From a phage, in the sequence record PZ465525.1: a stretch of 38,751 nucleotides of DNA. One strand, 5' to 3'. The stretch's first letter is position 1; every line of letters starts with the position of its first letter. The position numbers and the translations under genes were made by a program. This document shows positions 16,688-30,787 of the stretch, piece by piece. The notes beneath the pieces were generated by a model that saw only the letters and a list, made by a program, of their open reading frames with translations, did not search any database and was not told the origin of the DNA.

Positions 16688-16692
16688 CATCT

Positions 16693-16715
16693 TTATGACT
16701 CACTATAGGAGACAT
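16693..16715 (+). promoter_or_regulatory. Degenerate phage-promoter-like element between genes 17 and 17.5
   Basis: TTTATGACTCACTATAGGAGACA: matches the consensus core but has -12 T for C, one G missing at +1..+3, and a weak AT-rich upstream part. Confidence 0.35.
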
Positions 16716-20365: not shown

Positions 20366-20442
20366 CATTAGGGGAGCTTTGAGGGGGGACATTGAGGGAC
20401 GTTGAGTGTCCTAGTGTCCCTATCTGTTACAACCTCTTAAAG
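20211..20442. repeat. Putative terminal repeat (single collapsed copy) marking the mature genome ends
   Basis: Begins TCTCACAG... like the T7 left end and ends ...CCCTATCTGTTACAACCTCTTAAAG like the end of the T7 terminal repeat; boundaries are by analogy only. Confidence 0.5.
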
Positions 20443-20633
20443 TATCCTCATAAAGCCACCTCTTAATGTCATTCCTAAAGCCTACACCTAAAGACTACAC
20501 CTAAAGACGCCATCGAGTCAATGCCTATCTTAAAGTATCCTCATAGAGTCACCTCTTAATGTCCTTCTTAAAGCCTACACCTAAAGATGCCCTGTTGTTA
20601 GCCATACAGAGATAATCTTCAATCATTGTCTCT
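20443..20633. repeat. Left-end array of ACCTAAAG-type short repeats with a duplicated ~80-bp unit
   Basis: CTCTTAAAGTATCCTCATAAAGCCACCTCTTAATGTCATTCCTAAAGCCTACACCTAAAGA recurs with small changes ~90 bp downstream. Confidence 0.6.
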
Positions 20634-20972: not shown

Positions 20973-21112
20973 TAAGCACCTTAACGAAGACACCGAACGG
21001 CACGGTATACTGTCGGGCTCAGGATGAATTCCCTCTTGTGGGATGAAAAAGTGGGCATGGCGAAGGCACGAACTGCTACGCAAAGTAGCTATACCCAACG
21101 CCGAACACTGAA

Positions 21113-21158
21113 TGACTAACTCAAGGTCGTTCGCTAAGAGCGGCCTTTATGATAGTCA
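21113..21158 (+). promoter_or_regulatory. RNase III-type processing hairpin (R0.3-like)
   Basis: AACTCAAGGTCGTTCGCTAAGAGCGGCCTTTATGATAGTCAC. Confidence 0.75.
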
Positions 21159-21187
21159 CTCAACGAACCAACATGAGGTAACACAAA

Positions 21188-21643
21188 ATGATTTTCACTA
21201 AAGAACCTGCGAACATCTTCTATGTGCTGGTCTCTGCTTTCCGCTCAAACCTCGACGACGCTGAGAATATGAGCAGACACCGCCATATGGTTAGCACTTT
21301 ACGTGCCGCAGAAGGTCTTTATGGCTCCATTGAGTCAACCGATTTGACCGGATGCTATCGTGAGGAAATCGCAAGCGCGCCGACTGAGGAAAAAACTGTT
21401 CGTGTACGCTGCAAGGACGAGGCGCAGGCGCTCAATGTTGCACGTCTGGCTTGCAATGAGTGGGAACAAGATTGTGTGCTGGTATACAACTCCCAGACTC
21501 ACACTGCCAGCCTGATGTACGCTAAAGGCACCGATGGGCATAAGACCGAGCGTCTGGGGAGATTCCAAGAAGTGTCTAAAGGCGCACCGCTGCAAGGCTG
21601 CTACACGATTGACGAGTTTGGTCGCCGCTGGCAAGTACAATAA
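21188..21643 (+). CDS. S-adenosylmethionine-cleaving enzyme (T3 gene 0.3-type SAMase / SAM lyase), anti-restriction
   Basis: 151 aa, MIFTKEPANIFYVLVSAFRSNL...GAPLQGCYTIDEFGRRWQVQ, near-identical to the T3 SAMase as recalled; RBS GAGGT. Confidence 0.9.
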   Translation: MIFTKEPANIFYVLVSAFRSNLDDAENMSRHRHMVSTLRAAEGLYGSIESTDLTGCYREEIASAPTEEKTVRVRCKDEAQALNVARLACNEWEQDCVLVYNSQTHTASLMYAKGTDGHKTERLGRFQEVSKGAPLQGCYTIDEFGRRWQVQ

Positions 21644-21647
21644 GTGA

Positions 21648-21688
21648 TAAACTCAAGGTCGCTCTGTACGAGTGGCCTTTATGATTAC
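21648..21688 (+). promoter_or_regulatory. RNase III-type processing hairpin
   Basis: AAACTCAAGGTCGCTCTGTACGAGTGGCCTTTATGATTACC, close to the T7 R0.5 sequence (recalled). Confidence 0.75.
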
Positions 21689-21718
21689 CACTTTGAAACA
21701 ACGCACGGGATTACTGTC

Positions 21719-21856
21719 ATGCTGAAATATTACGTTATGCCAATCCGTCACTCCACTGGTGCCACTGTATGCACTCCAGATGGGTTCGCAATGAAAGCAC
21801 GTATCGAGCGCCTTAAGCGCGAACTCCGCACCAATCGCAAACTGAACAACATCTGA
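21719..21856 (+). CDS. 0.6: gene 0.6-like small early protein
   Basis: 45 aa, MLKYYVMPIRHSTGATVCTPDGFAMKARIERLKRELRTNRKLNNI, very similar to T7 gp0.6A (recalled); the ORF-track start 21644 lies inside the hairpin. Confidence 0.75.
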   Translation: MLKYYVMPIRHSTGATVCTPDGFAMKARIERLKRELRTNRKLNNI

Positions 21857-21888
21857 TAGCACACACACACAAACTGAGGTAACACACT

Positions 21889-22410
21889 ATGAAACGCAAT
21901 GCTAATGCTTATTACGAACTGCTGGCCGCTACTGTTGAGGCATTCAATGAGCGCATCCAAGAAGACAAGTTGACCGAGGATAGTGATTACCACGATGCCC
22001 TGCATAAAGTGGTTGACCGGATGGTTCCGAGCTACTACTGGGAAATCTTCATGGTCATGGCGGCTGACGGTATTGACGTTGAGTTTGACGATGATGGTCT
22101 GATGCCAGACACCAAGGATGTTACCCGAATCCTGCAAGCCCGCATCTACGAGGCGCTATATAACGATGTGCCCAACGATAGCGGGGTCGAATGGTACGAA
22201 GGCGAGGAGGAGGAGGAGCCCGAGGAGCCAAGCCAGTGGTATGTAATCAATGATGAAGAACACGGGAGCTTTGTGGTCTCCTTTCACGACTCACTAAAGG
22301 CAGCCATTGAGGCAGCCGATGAACGATACAATACGCTGGGCAAGCGGTGCCACGTTGAGGATGATACCAGCTCAGATGTGCTTTACAATCCGGTAACTGC
22401 TGACGAGTGA
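21889..22410 (+). CDS. ocr: Ocr-like DNA-mimic anti-restriction protein with a ~65-aa C-terminal extension
   Basis: 173 aa; residues ~30-100 (HDALHKVVDRMVPSYYWEIFMVMAADGIDVEFDDDGLMPDTKDVTRILQARIYEAL) align to T7 Ocr (117 aa, recalled); RBS CTGAGGTAACACACT-ATG is the T7 0.3-type initiation region. Confidence 0.85.
   Translation: MKRNANAYYELLAATVEAFNERIQEDKLTEDSDYHDALHKVVDRMVPSYYWEIFMVMAADGIDVEFDDDGLMPDTKDVTRILQARIYEALYNDVPNDSGVEWYEGEEEEEPEEPSQWYVINDEEHGSFVVSFHDSLKAAIEAADERYNTLGKRCHVEDDTSSDVLYNPVTADE
22281..22303 (+). promoter_or_regulatory. Promoter-like relic inside the Ocr-like coding sequence
   Basis: CTTTCACGACTCACTAAAGGCAG matches the consensus core ACGACTCACTA-AGG but lacks the TAATA upstream part; probably nonfunctional. 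Confidence 0.3.
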
Positions 22411-22450
22411 TAGACTCAAGGTCGTTCTTTAATGAGCGGCCTTTATGATT
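22411..22450 (+). promoter_or_regulatory. RNase III-type processing hairpin upstream of gene 0.7
   Basis: TAGACTCAAGGTCGTTCTTTAATGAGCGGCCTTTATGATTACC. Confidence 0.75.
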
Positions 22451-22485
22451 ACCACTTGAAACCTAATCATAAGGACAAACTTGAA

Positions 22486-23586
22486 ATGAACGTTAACGAA
22501 ATCTCCGCCCGTGTCTCTGAAATAGCTGCTCTGGGTCTCTCTGAGTTGACCAAACTCCAGCCGATGCTGGTGAAGCTAATTGCCGACATTGTGAACCACG
22601 AAACGGAAAACGGCTATTTGACAATGAAAGAAGGCGACCGTGCGCTAGGGGCGATGCCCTATTGGAACAGCCTGATGGTTTACTTGAAGGATGCTGGCTT
22701 TGAGCTGCTGGGCAATGGTCACTTTTCGGCTGCCTTTAAGCACCACCTTCTGCCACAAAAGGTTATCAAGGTCGGGTTCAAAAAAGAGGACTCAGGGGCA
22801 GCATACGCTGCGTTCTGCCGCATGAACCAAGGCAAGCAAGGCATCCCTACCATCCACGACATTCAACGTCACGCTGGCTGTTACACTGTGGTTCTTGACG
22901 AGCTGCGCAGCATCCAGACCGATGGGTGGGGGCTCATGGCTGATAGCCAATGGGTCGACGAACAATACGACTGCGCCCGTCAGGTAATCCAGTACGGTCT
23001 CTGCCCGAGCTACTACGAGGGCTTCGCGGCGGACGAACTCGCCAAGACCTGCGCGGAAATACGCAAGTTCTTCGAGGGAATCGCAGTCTTCGATATGCAC
23101 GCCGGTAACGCAATGGTTGACAAAGACGGCAATCTGGTAATTACCGACCCTGTATCGTTCGCCTCTGCGCTGCCTGAGAATGAGTTCCTCGTAGACCCCG
23201 AGGAACTCCTAGCGGAAATCGAGCAGATAGCCGAGCGCAAGATTATTGAGCGGTGCCGTGAGCGAAAAGCCAAGCGCGACCCTAACGGAATATTCCGGTT
23301 CAACCTCAAACAGCGCCAAAAGCGCCGCAAGGAATGCAAGAAGGCCGAACGCCTCCGGAAACGGGATGCTGCCAAGCTGGCGCTCCAAGCGCACAACCGT
23401 GATGTGGCCCTTAAGGAGCTTGGCATAACTCTCTGGATGAAAGCCTACTTCGACCTCCCAAACGCAAAGATGGTCGAAATGGAGGCGCAAGTTGCCGCCA
23501 AGGTCGCTAACCGCAACCACAAAGCAATTGCACTGGGTCAGGCTCTCGATATTGACAAAGAACTTGACGCAATGTTCCAAGGTTGA
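22486..23586 (+). CDS. 0.7: gp0.7 serine/threonine protein kinase / host transcription shutoff protein
   Basis: Start at ATG 22486 (ORF track 22432 is upstream in the hairpin); conserved blocks FELLGNGHFSAAF, VIKVGFKKEDSGAAY, RHAGCYTVVLDEL, KFFEGIAVFDMHAGN, ITDPVSF and ...IDKELDAMFQG match T7 gp0.7 (recalled). Confidence 0.9.
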   Translation: MNVNEISARVSEIAALGLSELTKLQPMLVKLIADIVNHETENGYLTMKEGDRALGAMPYWNSLMVYLKDAGFELLGNGHFSAAFKHHLLPQKVIKVGFKKEDSGAAYAAFCRMNQGKQGIPTIHDIQRHAGCYTVVLDELRSIQTDGWGLMADSQWVDEQYDCARQVIQYGLCPSYYEGFAADELAKTCAEIRKFFEGIAVFDMHAGNAMVDKDGNLVITDPVSFASALPENEFLVDPEELLAEIEQIAERKIIERCRERKAKRDPNGIFRFNLKQRQKRRKECKKAERLRKRDAAKLALQAHNRDVALKELGITLWMKAYFDLPNAKMVEMEAQVAAKVANRNHKAIALGQALDIDKELDAMFQG

Positions 23587-23588
23587 GT

Positions 23589-23622
23589 ATTATCTTCAAG
23601 GTCACTGCGGTGGCCTTTATAG
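23589..23622 (+). promoter_or_regulatory. RNase III-type processing hairpin (R1-like)
   Basis: TCTTCAAGGTCACTGCGGTGGCCTTTATAGG. Confidence 0.7.
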
Positions 23623-23652
23623 GTACGATTCACTGACACAACGAGGCACAAA

Positions 23653-26304
23653 ATGACTGTAATCGCAATCGAAAAGAACGACTTCTCCGACGTTGAGCTG
23701 GCTGTTATCCCGTTCAACACACTGGCAGACCACTACGGTGAGAAGCTGGCCCGTGAGCAGTTGGCACTTGAGCACGAAGCTTATGAAATGGGCGAGGCCC
23801 GTTTCCGCAAGATATTCGAGCGTCAGCTTAAGGCTGGTGAGGTTGCAGATAACGCTGCCGCTAAGCCGCTTGTCGCAACCCTGCTCCCCAAGATGATTGA
23901 GCGAATCCACGCTTGGTTCGAGGAGGTTTCCGTTAAGCGTGGCAAGCGCCCGACTGCCTTTAAGTTCCTGCAAGAGGTAAAGCCAGAGGCTATCGCTTAC
24001 ATCACCATCAAGACCGTTCTGGGTGCTCTGACAAGCGCTGAGCAAACCACTGTGCAAGCCGCCGCGTCTGCTGTTGGTCGCGCCATTGAGGACGAAGCCC
24101 GCTTTGGTCGCATCCGTGACCTTGAGGCTAAGCACTTCAAGAAGAACGTGGAGGAACAGCTTAACAAGCGTGTGGGCCACGTCTACAAGAAGGCTTTCCT
24201 GCAAGTGGTTGAGGCTGATATGCTGAGCAAGGGCCTGATGGGCGGTGAAGCGTGGTCTAGCTGGCACAAAGAAGACTCCATCCACGTTGGCGTTCGCTGC
24301 ATCGAAATGCTCATTGAGTCAACCGGTCTTGTTGTCCTTGAGCGTCAAAACGCTGGCGTCGTTGGCGCTGATGCTGAGACCCTGAGCCTTGCCTCTGAGT
24401 ATGCTGACGTAATCGCAACCCGCGCTGGTGCTCTGGCTGGTATCTCTCCAATGTATCAGCCTTGCGTAGTTCCGCCTAAACCTTGGACAACTGTGACTGG
24501 CGGTGGCTACTGGGCTAACGGTCGCCGTCCGCTTGCTCTGGTGCGTACCCACGGCAAGAAGGCGCTGATGCGCTACGAGGACGTTTACATGCCTGAGGTT
24601 TACAAAGCGGTCAACCTTGCGCAATCCACCGCATGGAAAATCAACAAGAAGGTGCTGGCGGTAGCCAACGAGATTACCAAGTGGAAGCACTGCCCTGTTG
24701 AGGACATTCCGGCAATCGAGCGCGAGGATCTGCCAGTTAAACCGGACGACATTGACGAGAACCCTGAGGCGCTGATCAACTGGAAACGTGCTGCGGCGGC
24801 TGTGTACCGCAAGGACAAGGCCCGCAAGTCTCGCCGTCTGTCCCTTGAGTTTATGCTTGAGCAGGCCAACAAGTTCGCAAACCACAAGGCCATTTGGTTC
24901 CCTTACAACATGGACTGGCGTGGTCGCGTTTACGCGGTCTCCATGTTCAACCCGCAAGGCAACGATATGACCAAGGGCTTGCTGACTCTGGCTAAGGGAA
25001 AGGCAATCGGCAAGGAAGGTTTCTACTGGCTGAAAATCCACGGTGCAAACTGCGCTGGTGTCGATAAGGTTCCGTTCCCTGAGCGCATCAAGTTCATTGA
25101 GGACAACCACGAGCACATCATGGCGTCCGCTAAGAACCCGCTTGAGTACACTTGGTGGGCCGAACAAGATAGCCCGTTCTGCTTCCTTGCGTTCTGCTTT
25201 GAGTACGCTGGGGTAATGCACCACGGCTTGTCTTATAACTGCTCCCTGCCGCTGGCTTTCGACGGCTCCTGCTCTGGCATCCAGCACTTCTCCGCGATGC
25301 TGCGCGATGAAGTTGGTGGTCGTGCGGTGAACCTGCTCCCGAGCGAGACCGTGCAGGACATTTACGGCATCGTAGCCAAGAGGGTGAACGAAATCCTGCA
25401 ACGCGATGTTATCTTTGGGACTGACGACGAGTTGGTCACTGAGACTGACAAGACCACTGGGGAAATCACTGAGAAAACCGTACTGGGCACTCGCACTCTG
25501 GCGGGCCAATGGCTGGCCTATGGGGTCAACCGTAGCGTAACCAAGCGTTCCGTAATGACTCTGGCGTATGGCTCCAAGGAGTTCGGTTTCCGTCAGCAAG
25601 TCCTTGAGGACACTATCCGTCCGGCTATCGACTCCGGCAAGGGCCTGATGTTCACCATCCCGTACCAAGCGGCTGGCTACATGGCTAAGCTGATTTGGGA
25701 CTCTGTGAGCGTGACCGTAGTTGCTGCGGTAGAGGCCATGAAGTGGCTGCAAAGTGCCGCTAAGCTGCTGGCCGCTGAGGTCAAGGACAAGAAGACTGGT
25801 GAGGTTCTGCGTAACCGCTGCGCTGTTCACTGGGTAACTCCCGATGGGTTCGCCGTATGGCAGGAGTACCGCAAGCCTCTGCAAACCCGTCTGAATCTGA
25901 TGTTCCTCGGTCAGTTCCGCTTGCAGCCGACCATCAACACCAACAAGGACTCTGGGATTGATGCTCATAAGCAGGAGTCTGGCATTGCACCTAACTTCGT
26001 ACACTCTCAGGATGGCTCTCACCTGCGCAAGACCGTAGTGTGGGCTCACGAAAAGTACGGCATCGAGTCTTTCGCTCTGATTCACGACTCTTTCGGAACC
26101 ATTCCGGCTGACGCTGGCAACCTATTCAAGGCTGTGCGTGAGACTATGGTTGACACCTACGAGAAGAACGATGTGCTGGCCGACTTCTACGAGCAGTTTG
26201 CTGACCAGCTCCACGAGTCCCAACTGGACAAGATGCCTGCTCTGCCGAAGAAAGGCAACCTGAACCTGCGGGACATTCTTGAGTCTGACTTCGCGTTCGC
26301 GTAA
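23653..26304 (+). CDS. 1: gp1 single-subunit DNA-dependent RNA polymerase
   Basis: 883 aa, identical in length and highly similar to T7 RNAP (MTVIAIEKNDFSDVELAAIPFNTLADHYGE..., ends ...LRDILESDFAFA). Confidence 0.98.
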   Translation: MTVIAIEKNDFSDVELAVIPFNTLADHYGEKLAREQLALEHEAYEMGEARFRKIFERQLKAGEVADNAAAKPLVATLLPKMIERIHAWFEEVSVKRGKRPTAFKFLQEVKPEAIAYITIKTVLGALTSAEQTTVQAAASAVGRAIEDEARFGRIRDLEAKHFKKNVEEQLNKRVGHVYKKAFLQVVEADMLSKGLMGGEAWSSWHKEDSIHVGVRCIEMLIESTGLVVLERQNAGVVGADAETLSLASEYADVIATRAGALAGISPMYQPCVVPPKPWTTVTGGGYWANGRRPLALVRTHGKKALMRYEDVYMPEVYKAVNLAQSTAWKINKKVLAVANEITKWKHCPVEDIPAIEREDLPVKPDDIDENPEALINWKRAAAAVYRKDKARKSRRLSLEFMLEQANKFANHKAIWFPYNMDWRGRVYAVSMFNPQGNDMTKGLLTLAKGKAIGKEGFYWLKIHGANCAGVDKVPFPERIKFIEDNHEHIMASAKNPLEYTWWAEQDSPFCFLAFCFEYAGVMHHGLSYNCSLPLAFDGSCSGIQHFSAMLRDEVGGRAVNLLPSETVQDIYGIVAKRVNEILQRDVIFGTDDELVTETDKTTGEITEKTVLGTRTLAGQWLAYGVNRSVTKRSVMTLAYGSKEFGFRQQVLEDTIRPAIDSGKGLMFTIPYQAAGYMAKLIWDSVSVTVVAAVEAMKWLQSAAKLLAAEVKDKKTGEVLRNRCAVHWVTPDGFAVWQEYRKPLQTRLNLMFLGQFRLQPTINTNKDSGIDAHKQESGIAPNFVHSQDGSHLRKTVVWAHEKYGIESFALIHDSFGTIPADAGNLFKAVRETMVDTYEKNDVLADFYEQFADQLHESQLDKMPALPKKGNLNLRDILESDFAFA

Positions 26305-28073: not shown

Positions 28074-28110
28074 GGCCTGCACCTTCTTAGGGTGTGGGCC
28101 TTTGTAGTTT
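28074..28110 (+). terminator. Putative intrinsic terminator for host RNAP (TE-like early terminator after the ligase gene)
   Basis: GGCCTGCACC-TTCTTAG-GGTGTGGGCC: 10-bp stem with two G-U pairs, then TTTGTAGTTT; at the position of T7 TE. Confidence 0.55.
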
Positions 28111-28133
28111 CTATAAGGCTCACTAAAGGAGAC
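28111..28133 (+). promoter_or_regulatory. Degenerate phage promoter-like element (phi1.6 position)
   Basis: CTATAAGGCTCACTAAAGGAGAC: CACTAAAGGAG core as in T7 phi1.6, but -12/-10 changed; activity uncertain. Confidence 0.4.
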
Positions 28134-28137
28134 AACT

Positions 28138-28407
28138 ATGAAATTCAAGCTGCATTACCATAAGCTGTTCAAGCACTTTACCGTTCGCCGCTCCGATACC
28201 CGAGCAATCGTGTTCACCACCGAGCGCCGCTTTGTCATTCCGATGATTGGTCGGACTGTTGAGCTGTCCCCGAAGGTTCACGTAATCATCACCCGTGGCA
28301 AATTCCAAGAAGCAACCAACAAGACCCGTCCGGTTCTTAACGTGGCAGTGACCCGTTTCCCGTTCGTCAAGTTGCTGATTGAGCGCATCAAGGAGGTGCT
28401 GAAATGA
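28138..28407 (+). CDS. 1.6: gp1.6 protein
   Basis: 89 aa, ...[18 protein letters not shown]...[23 protein letters not shown], similar to T7 gp1.6 (recalled). Confidence 0.85.
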
Positions 28408-28715: not shown

Positions 28716-28899
28716 CCAACGCCAAGCCCCAACCTACCGTAATGCGCCAGACGACAAGGACTTTCAGTCCAGCCCACATCATGGTCTGTGCTCCGACTGG
28801 TGCTATAGGCAGTGGGGGGCTGCCCTGAATCAGGGAGACCAGCGAGCCGCTGACGCCTACATGAAGATGTACGACATGTGGAAAGAGAGGAACCAATAA
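28708..28899 (+). CDS. 1.8: gp1.8-like small protein
   Basis: 63 aa from ATG 28708; C-terminus ...CSDWCYRQW...[14 protein letters not shown] resembles T7 gp1.8 (recalled); the ORF-track start 28585 lies inside gene 1.7. Confidence 0.65.
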
Positions 28900-29120
28900 T
28901 GACTACTCTGTATGATACAACTACCAACAACCGCATGGACAAAGGGTCTGCCGTGGTGGAAAACCGGAAGTTCTGGGCGACCATCCAGTCGTCTGAGCAC
29001 TCCTACGATATGCCCATTTACGCTGTGAGCCTTGACGAGGCCACCGAGTTGGCTGAGCGTCAGTACGTTCCGGCTGGCTTTGAGGTAATCCGAGTGCGCC
29101 CTTGCCGCCTTCCGGTTTAA
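28899..29120 (+). CDS. 2: gp2 inhibitor of host RNA polymerase
   Basis: 73 aa from ATG 28899 (TAATG overlap with 1.8); ...[48 protein letters not shown]... matches T7 gp2 (recalled). Confidence 0.88.
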
Positions 29121-30332: not shown

Positions 30333-30787
30333 TGTCTCGAGTACAATTCAAACAGAGGGAGGCGACTAACGCCATTTTTGTACACTGCTCTGCAACCAAG
30401 GCAACTCAGGACGTTGGTGTCCGTGAGATTCGCCAGTGGCACAAGGAGCAAGGCTGGCTTGACGTAGGCTACCACTTCATCATTCGCCGTGATGGCACTA
30501 TCGAAGATGGCCGAGACGTTAACGCCGTGGGCTCTCATGCCCGTGGTTACAACCACAACTCCGTAGGCGTGTGCCTTGTTGGGGGCATTGACGAGAAGGG
30601 TCGGCACGAAGCCAACTTCACTCCTCAACAGATGTCTGCCCTGCGCACACTGCTGGAAGTCCTGATGGACAAGTACCCGAGCGCGGTACTTCGCGCCCAC
30701 CACGATGTTGCACCGAAGGCTTGCCCTTCGTTCGACCTGCAACGCTGGTGGAGGCACAATGAGCTGGTCACTTCTGACCGAGGCTAA
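30332..30787 (+). CDS. 3.5: gp3.5 lysozyme (N-acetylmuramoyl-L-alanine amidase; RNAP inhibitor)
   Basis: 151 aa, MSRVQFKQREATNAIFVHCSATK...AHHDVAPKACPSFDL..., highly similar to T7 lysozyme (recalled); TAATG overlap with gene 3. Confidence 0.97.
   Translation: MSRVQFKQREATNAIFVHCSATKATQDVGVREIRQWHKEQGWLDVGYHFIIRRDGTIEDGRDVNAVGSHARGYNHNSVGVCLVGGIDEKGRHEANFTPQQMSALRTLLEVLMDKYPSAVLRAHHDVAPKACPSFDLQRWWRHNELVTSDRG

Follow-up and report, generated by a model that had tools for sequence, protein, structure and literature searches.

Why does the Ocr-like protein of a T7-like phage continue far past its acidic tail, and what is a string that resembles a phage promoter doing inside the added part? These questions are raised by the gene at positions 21889-22410 of the DNA analysed here (the window, i.e. 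the whole stretch of 38,751 nucleotides in sequence record PZ465525.1). [quoted passage not shown] To our knowledge, nearly all experimental work on Ocr has been done with the 117-aa protein of T7. A sequence-only reading of the window suggested that an Ocr gene had been fused to formerly intergenic or recombined DNA, and that the promoter-like string was a relic of this event.

Genomic setting of the long Ocr gene

The window is the genome of a T7-like phage and is circularly permuted relative to its relatives in GenBank. Over positions 21000-24000, the nearest relatives were Aeromonas phage KFSA9 (93%), Escherichia phage Ebrios and Stenotrophomonas phage IME15. Aeromonas phages PZL-Ah1 and avDM11 were further near relatives, and all five belong to Teseptimavirus. 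The following features of the window bear on the Ocr gene.

21109-21162: RNase III-type hairpin, one of a repeated set of three
21188-21643: SAM lyase of the T3 type (PF23780, E = 1e-44)
21642-21693, + strand: RNase III-type hairpin, 5′ of the cassette formed by the 0.6-like ORF and Ocr (families D3-D5; -18.5 kcal/mol, z = -3.1)
21719-21856: small 0.6-like ORF of 45 aa, between the SAM lyase and Ocr genes
21876-21880, + strand: Shine-Dalgarno sequence GAGGT of the long Ocr gene, read in the sequence, 9 nt 5′ of the ATG
21889-22410, + strand: long-form Ocr gene, from the ORF list (ATG start, 173 codons and TGA, with an in-frame TAG next)
22404-22458, + strand: RNase III-type hairpin that overlaps the Ocr stop and precedes the kinase gene (families D4/D5; -21.4 kcal/mol, z = -3.7)
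About 22486-23586: kinase gene, directly after the long Ocr gene in the gene order
23653-26304: RNA polymerase gene, after the kinase gene
28878-29120: gene 2 protein of this phage

The early genes follow the order SAM lyase, 45-aa ORF, Ocr, kinase and RNA polymerase, and the Ocr gene has the early position that characterizes its family. The context of its ribosome-binding site recurs before the SAM lyase gene (repeat family D6). The three repeated hairpins, which contain internal loops (z = -3.1 to -4.4), part the early-gene cassettes from each other. The homologous sequences in T3 are annotated as the RNase III sites R0.3 and R0.5. Repeated hairpins that bracket cassettes in this way could provide shared sequence for the exchange of cassettes between phages.

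We made some further observations in and around this region. A T3-type SAM lyase and an Ocr, which represent the two classical alternative gene 0.3 strategies against restriction and BREX, are found side by side in one phage (21188-21643 and 21889-22410). The same pair is present in IME15, Ebrios, KFSA9, PZL-Ah1 and the contig L013. Imperfect 60-nt direct repeats, rich in CCTAAAG, occupy 20435-20587, 5′ of the first phage promoter (20633); they probably represent a repeat array close to where the genome physically ends on the left. The kinase start given in the ORF list is the ATG at 22432, which falls inside the RNase III-type hairpin at 22404-22458. The start annotated in the relatives, ATGAACGTTAAC, lies here at 22486 and has the better ribosome-binding context.

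The Ocr core

The 173 residues can be divided into three parts.

21889-22197, + strand: Ocr DNA-mimic core, residues 1-103 (Pfam, T7 Ocr, AlphaFold/Foldseek)
22198-22236, + strand: acidic linker, residues 104-116 (EGEEEEEPEEPSQ), encoded by a (GAG)n run
22237-22407, + strand: C-terminal beta-beta-alpha-beta-beta domain, residues 117-173 (AlphaFold, dN/dS, conserved positions)

The ORF had been read as an Ocr homologue, and this was borne out. The Pfam family ocr (PF08684) matched residues 8-97 with 96.7 bits (cut-off 25) and E = 1.3e-27. T7 Ocr (PDB 1s7z), whose length of 117 aa had been given correctly in the sequence-only reading, aligned with residues 10-112 (E = 2.2e-24). The profile of PHROG 2568, 'ocr-like anti-restriction', matched residues 1-150 (E = 6e-55; profile positions 1-153 of 161). 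The Ocr fold was kept in the AlphaFold2 model of the full-length protein (pLDDT 83), in which the four Ocr helices span residues 7-26, 35-45, 50-59 and 76-96. A Foldseek comparison of the predicted model with 1s7z and Ocr complexes gave E-values of 3e-5 to 3e-4 and target-normalised TM scores of 0.61-0.69. The core has a pI of 4.2, with 24 D/E versus 9 K/R, and the whole protein has a pI of 4.1; the strong negative charge of an Ocr DNA mimic is present. In every feature of the Ocr family that can be computed (Pfam threshold, four-helix fold, charge and early position), the protein is an Ocr.

The linker and the C-terminal domain

T7 Ocr has nothing that aligns with the last 60 or so residues (114-173), in line with the sequence-only reading. 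The linker is the counterpart of the acidic tail at which short-form Ocrs end: those with 80-84% core identity stop directly after the tail WYEDEEEEEE. Among the relatives, the length of the linker differs by whole codons only, i.e. in frame. The T7 Ocr truncations Ocr99 and Ocr109 still block restriction, and the C-terminal tail of the T7 protein is dispensable (PMC3439906). Because the tail is dispensable in T7 Ocr and the short forms end there, it is a natural attachment point.

The AlphaFold2 model (43-sequence alignment) placed strands of the C-domain at residues 117-121, 128-133, 154-158 and 164-166 and a helix at 136-150. Modelled alone, the domain reached a pLDDT of 87.2 and a pTM of 0.73. 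In the full-length model, linker residues 108-110 were the only ones with a pLDDT under 50, and the pTM of 0.56 leaves the orientation of the two domains uncertain. According to these models, the extension is a folded domain. It is also under purifying selection, with dN/dS values of 0.09-0.41 versus 0.10-0.23 in the core (Nei-Gojobori method, window against ten relatives). The conserved positions are W117, V119, D122, G126, A139, Y147, G151, V156, E157, D159 and P168. The C-domain is itself acidic (pI 4.4). Reading the sequence, we found no in-frame start codon past the linker at which an internal translation start for the C-domain might lie.

Searches by sequence in Pfam, NCBIfam and PDB gave no credible relative of the C-domain. 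PepSY was matched by 2 of 26 members (E = 0.0018); the topology of PepSY differs from that of the C-domain. The best E-value of a Foldseek search of the C-domain model against PDB was 0.45. In BFVD, dozens of uncharacterised phage proteins of 55-75 aa resemble its fold, with TM scores of 0.6-0.8.

Distribution of the long form

The sequence-only reading had named a common occurrence of the extension among database Ocr homologues as evidence against it, and such homologues do commonly carry it. When 50,697 phage records were searched by tblastn, Ocr was matched in 569, of which 21 covered at least 80% of the query. The records with the full-length form include IME15, Ebrios, SH3 and Kc166A. When the extension alone was used as the query, the IME15 group, PZL-Ah152 and PZL-Ah8 were matched, and Kosakonia phage Kc166A was matched weakly. 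A scan of viral contigs with the extension returned IME15 alone. The proteins of Citrobacter phage SH3 (Kayfunavirus; 'antirestriction protein', 169 aa) and KKP_3263 aligned over the full length. In a collection of 5.8 billion proteins, about 108 of the best 120 clusters were 162-194 aa long with at least 97% query coverage, and they include named proteins from the phages CLB_P1, PH1061, ZH4 and Hafnia yong1. The identical sequence was absent from the databases searched, where the best match was 89%.

Judged by these comparisons, the protein is a newcomer to a long-form subfamily that GenBank and PHROGs already contain under an Ocr-like annotation. Its C-domain is also already known as a sequence and covered by PHROG 2568; it has no Pfam entry and is uncharacterised. 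Though common, the extension is not yet a named domain. In the literature on long or extended Ocr homologues, we found no paper that describes the C-domain.

Exchange of the C-terminal domain

When 1.84 billion representative proteins were searched with a C-domain profile, three real matches were obtained. All three carry the domain at their C-terminal end, and this set yielded no standalone homologue. The divergent Ocr P0124 (L016, 5001-5573) shares 22.5% identity with the window protein in the core and 57.7% in the C-domain. P0060 shows the reverse: its core is 80.6% identical to that of the window protein, its C-domain 23.4%. P0125 (L011, 987-1382) has a non-Ocr N-terminal domain (PHROG 9294/9396, uncharacterised), followed by an acidic linker and the same C-domain. 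Its gene is the first early gene 5′ of the RNA polymerase gene in another autographivirus. An RNA polymerase gene likewise follows the gene of P0124.

The discordant similarities of core and C-domain in P0124 and P0060 indicate that the C-domain is a shuffled module that has been exchanged between Ocr lineages. The site of exchange is probably the (GAG)n linker. Of the earlier suggestion that the extension came from formerly intergenic or recombined DNA, the recombined part stands, in the form of a shuffled protein module. The intergenic part does not, as the extension is folded and under purifying selection.

The promoter-like string

22281-22303, + strand: promoter-like string CTTTCACGACTCACTAAAGGCAG, codons 131-139 (S F H D S L K A A), weight matrix

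The 23-mer reads exactly as it had been quoted. Of the 14 positions of its core ACGACTCACTAAAG, 13 are shared with the promoter core of this phage, ACGACTCACTATAG, as the sequence-only reading had counted. Over the whole 23-nt consensus (TTAATACGACTCACTATAGGGAG), 17 of 23 positions agree. We scored the genome with a weight matrix built from its 17 strong promoters, all on the + strand. The string scored 19.6 bits and the next best non-promoter site 11.7 bits. Fifteen of the 17 real promoters outscored the string; left out of the matrix, the two weakest promoters reached 18.9 and 17.0 bits. Both of these weak promoter-like sites lie in normal intergenic positions, at 16690-16712 (TCTTTATGACTCACTATAGGAGA, between the tail-fibre and holin-like genes) and at 28110-28132 (TCTATAAGGCTCACTAAAGGAGA, just 5′ of the ATG at 28138). 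By chance, 0.004 sites of at least 19.6 bits are expected per genome on both strands, so the string is beyond a trivial chance match.

Within the string, the specificity region from -12 to -5 (CGACTCAC) is intact. The AT-rich element from -17 to -13 reads TTTCA versus TAATA, with agreement at 2 of 5 positions, and the initiation region from +1 to +3 reads GGC versus GGG, with a mismatch at +3; neither has the form expected of a functional T7-type promoter. The string lies in the middle of the domain, 45-80 nt 3′ of the junction at codons 104-116. In the Ocr reading frame, the consensus CTATAGG would give a TAG stop.

The site in IME15, Ebrios, KFSA9, avDM11 and PZL-Ah1 reads CTATTACGACTCACTAGAGGCAG and scores 24.2 bits, for which the chance expectation is 0.0003. 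The promoters of the contigs L012-L014 share the consensus of the window, and the string is not conserved in them. In L012 it reads CTACCACGACTCCCTAGAGGCAG (12.3 bits), with a synonymous change from TCA to TCC at -6; in L013 it reads CTATCATGACTCACTAGAGGCAG (15.7 bits); and in L014 the score is below 12 bits. The score in PZL-Ah152 is -4.9 bits. PZL-Ah152, SH3, KKP_3263 and Kc166A have the same or a similar motif in the C-domain, written in other codons, and no site. The string had been taken as a relic of the junction. Its place in the middle of the domain, 45-80 nt away from that junction, does not bear this out, and these four phages have the same domain without the string.

Published measurements with T7 RNA polymerase in vitro give an idea of what the deviations from the consensus would mean. 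The RNA/DNA ratio is about 140-190 for the wild type, 138-161 for -2A, 116 for -15T, 115 for -16T, 64-67 for -2G and 25 for -14C, the last being about 15% activity for that change alone (PMC5937735 supplement). A naive product of these ratios gives about 25-30% of the wild type for the version of the relatives. For the string of the window it gives about 5%, with the +3 G-to-C change left out.

Most likely, the string arose incidentally from the codons that encode the helix-capping motif (Y/H)-D-S-L-(E/K)-A. The calculated activities suggest that it may act as a promoter with weak residual activity. To judge from the comparison among relatives, it is not maintained by selection. It is uncomfortable to speak of 'coincidence' given an expectation of 0.004, or 0.0003 for the version of the relatives. 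We record this low chance expectation as an oddity and not as evidence of function.

Alternative explanations

The string might instead be a working, selected weak promoter from which the phage RNA polymerase transcribes the kinase and polymerase genes autocatalytically. Its score is close to what leave-one-out scoring gives for the two weakest promoters, both of them at normal intergenic places, and its critical positions from -13 to -3 are intact. The single-substitution data also suggest that the relatives' version could keep appreciable activity in vitro (PMC5937735 supplement). However, phages with the same consensus show the synonymous change from TCA to TCC at -6, a change from C to T at -12, or no site. 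The string lies in a coding region, and no gene starts 3′ of it before the hairpin. A promoter of consensus strength (20633, 37 bits) is already present 5′ of the whole early region. Moreover, the string has four substitutions between -17 and +2, more than the mean of 2.44 in variants that keep more than 1% activity (PMC5937735). A selected promoter at this place seems unlikely to us.

The extension itself has also been open to other explanations. A short Ocr might have lost its stop and read into formerly intergenic DNA, and the string would then be the relic of an intergenic promoter. This would fit the short Ocrs, which end exactly where the extension starts, and the presence of a rare promoter-like string inside it. 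However, the extension folds with confidence (pLDDT 87), has the low dN/dS values given above, and occurs without the string in distant lineages and in a second architecture; where the string is present, it lies mid-domain rather than at the junction. T7 has 17 promoters, a number already matched by the 17 of the window genome, and in T7-like phages the stretch from gene 0.3 to gene 0.7 is not known to contain a phage promoter; both points count against read-through, which we find scarcely credible. Still less credence is due to an assembly or sequencing artefact near codon 115, i.e. a frameshift or a missed stop. Indels do occur in sequences of the (GAG)n kind, but the same full-length frame was found in independent isolates and metagenomes, and every change of linker length is in frame. 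The sequence-only reading had named a sequencing error near codon 115 as an alternative; conservation of the full-length frame across more than 100 independent clusters rules this out. The C-domain might also be a module of the Gp2 type, with host RNA polymerase as its target, in which case the protein would be an Ocr-Gp2 fusion. The topology is similar (beta-beta-alpha-beta), Foldseek aligned the domain with T7 Gp2 (4lk0_M; TM 0.50/0.58, E = 0.98, 20% identity), hhalign aligned the helix region, and E. coli RNA polymerase is a known binding partner of Ocr itself (PDB 6r9b). A Pfam match to RNA_pol_inhib was obtained for 1 of 26 members at E = 0.051, although this is at chance level for 26 queries. 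The hhalign probabilities were 18% and 10%, from a thin Gp2 profile (3 proteins from a word-index search), and the profile search of 1.84 billion proteins contained no Gp2 relative. Many unrelated small phage proteins are closer in fold (TM 0.6-0.8), and a separate gene 2 protein is encoded by this phage at 28878-29120. On the Pfam, hhalign and profile-search results, homology to the Gp2 family (PF16857) was not supported, and we consider such a fusion very unlikely.

Proposed explanation and significance

We think it quite probable that the protein consists of an Ocr core, a linker and an exchanged folded module, and that the string is a by-product of the codons of this module. The gene would encode a two-domain early protein of a T7-like phage. 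By homology, its canonical Ocr DNA-mimic core (residues 1-103) would form dimers and inhibit the complexes of type I restriction-modification and of the BREX methyltransferase. A small, independently folding C-domain (117-173) would be attached to it by a flexible acidic linker (104-116). This domain would have been exchanged by recombination between different acidic first-early-gene proteins of Autographiviridae, and it would be a protein module, not translated intergenic DNA. Such C-domains might be accessory protein-binding modules that give the DNA mimic a second host target. Alternatively, they might alter how Ocr-sensing defences perceive Ocr and leave the mimic surface undisturbed.

A more specific proposal is that the C-domain is a mobile counter-defence module with an activity of its own, which might, for example, bind a second defence protein or mask Ocr from sensing systems such as PARIS. 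It would be swapped at the (GAG)n linker and tethered to first-expressed early proteins of autographiviruses (varied Ocr cores and, in at least one phage, an unrelated PHROG 9294-type domain). We regard this as possible but rather doubtful.

On present evidence, the protein is a routine member of a sequenced subfamily, and its potential for discovery lies in the C-domain only. The account of a fusion with a promoter relic is unsupported, and the string is not what it first seemed. What matters is that a sizeable Ocr subfamily carries a conserved, uncharacterised second domain. If this domain adds a target or alters sensing, predictions of which phages escape or trigger which defences would change. 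In that case, phage engineering would also gain a compact module.

Comparison with known systems

The string resembles the T7-type class II promoters (CTCACTAAAGG type), four of which are present in the genome. From -13 to +2 it is identical to those at 30784 and 36013. It differs from them by mismatches at -16 to -14 and +3, by its location inside a coding region and by its lack of conservation in relatives. The C-domain has a small alpha/beta topology like that of the small phage inhibitors T7 Gp2 (PF16857) and T4 Dmd (TM 0.50-0.58, about 0.55 for Dmd). However, there is no detectable sequence homology with T7 Gp2 and T4 Dmd, and the likeness is that of a common small fold only.

With T7 Ocr (gp0.3; 1S7Z; PF08684), the protein shares a homologous four-helix acidic core, with about 47% identity over residues 1-103 and with F54 and the acidic residues of the loop conserved. 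Both are encoded by early genes 5′ of the kinase and RNA polymerase genes, and both have an acidic tail. However, T7 Ocr has 117 aa versus 173 aa here, and of the two only the present protein has the 57-residue beta-beta-alpha-beta-beta domain past the acidic tail. In addition, the long Ocr coexists here with a T3-type SAM lyase. The long-form members of PHROG 2568 (IME15 AFV51442, Ebrios ebrios_3, SH3 gp2 and Kc166A Ocr) have the same two-domain architecture and the same genomic position. The identity is 83-90% to the group of IME15, Ebrios and KFSA9 and 56-61% to the Kayfunavirus forms. The window protein differs from its long-form relatives in its string, which has an A at -2 (lysine for glutamate) and a poorer upstream half.
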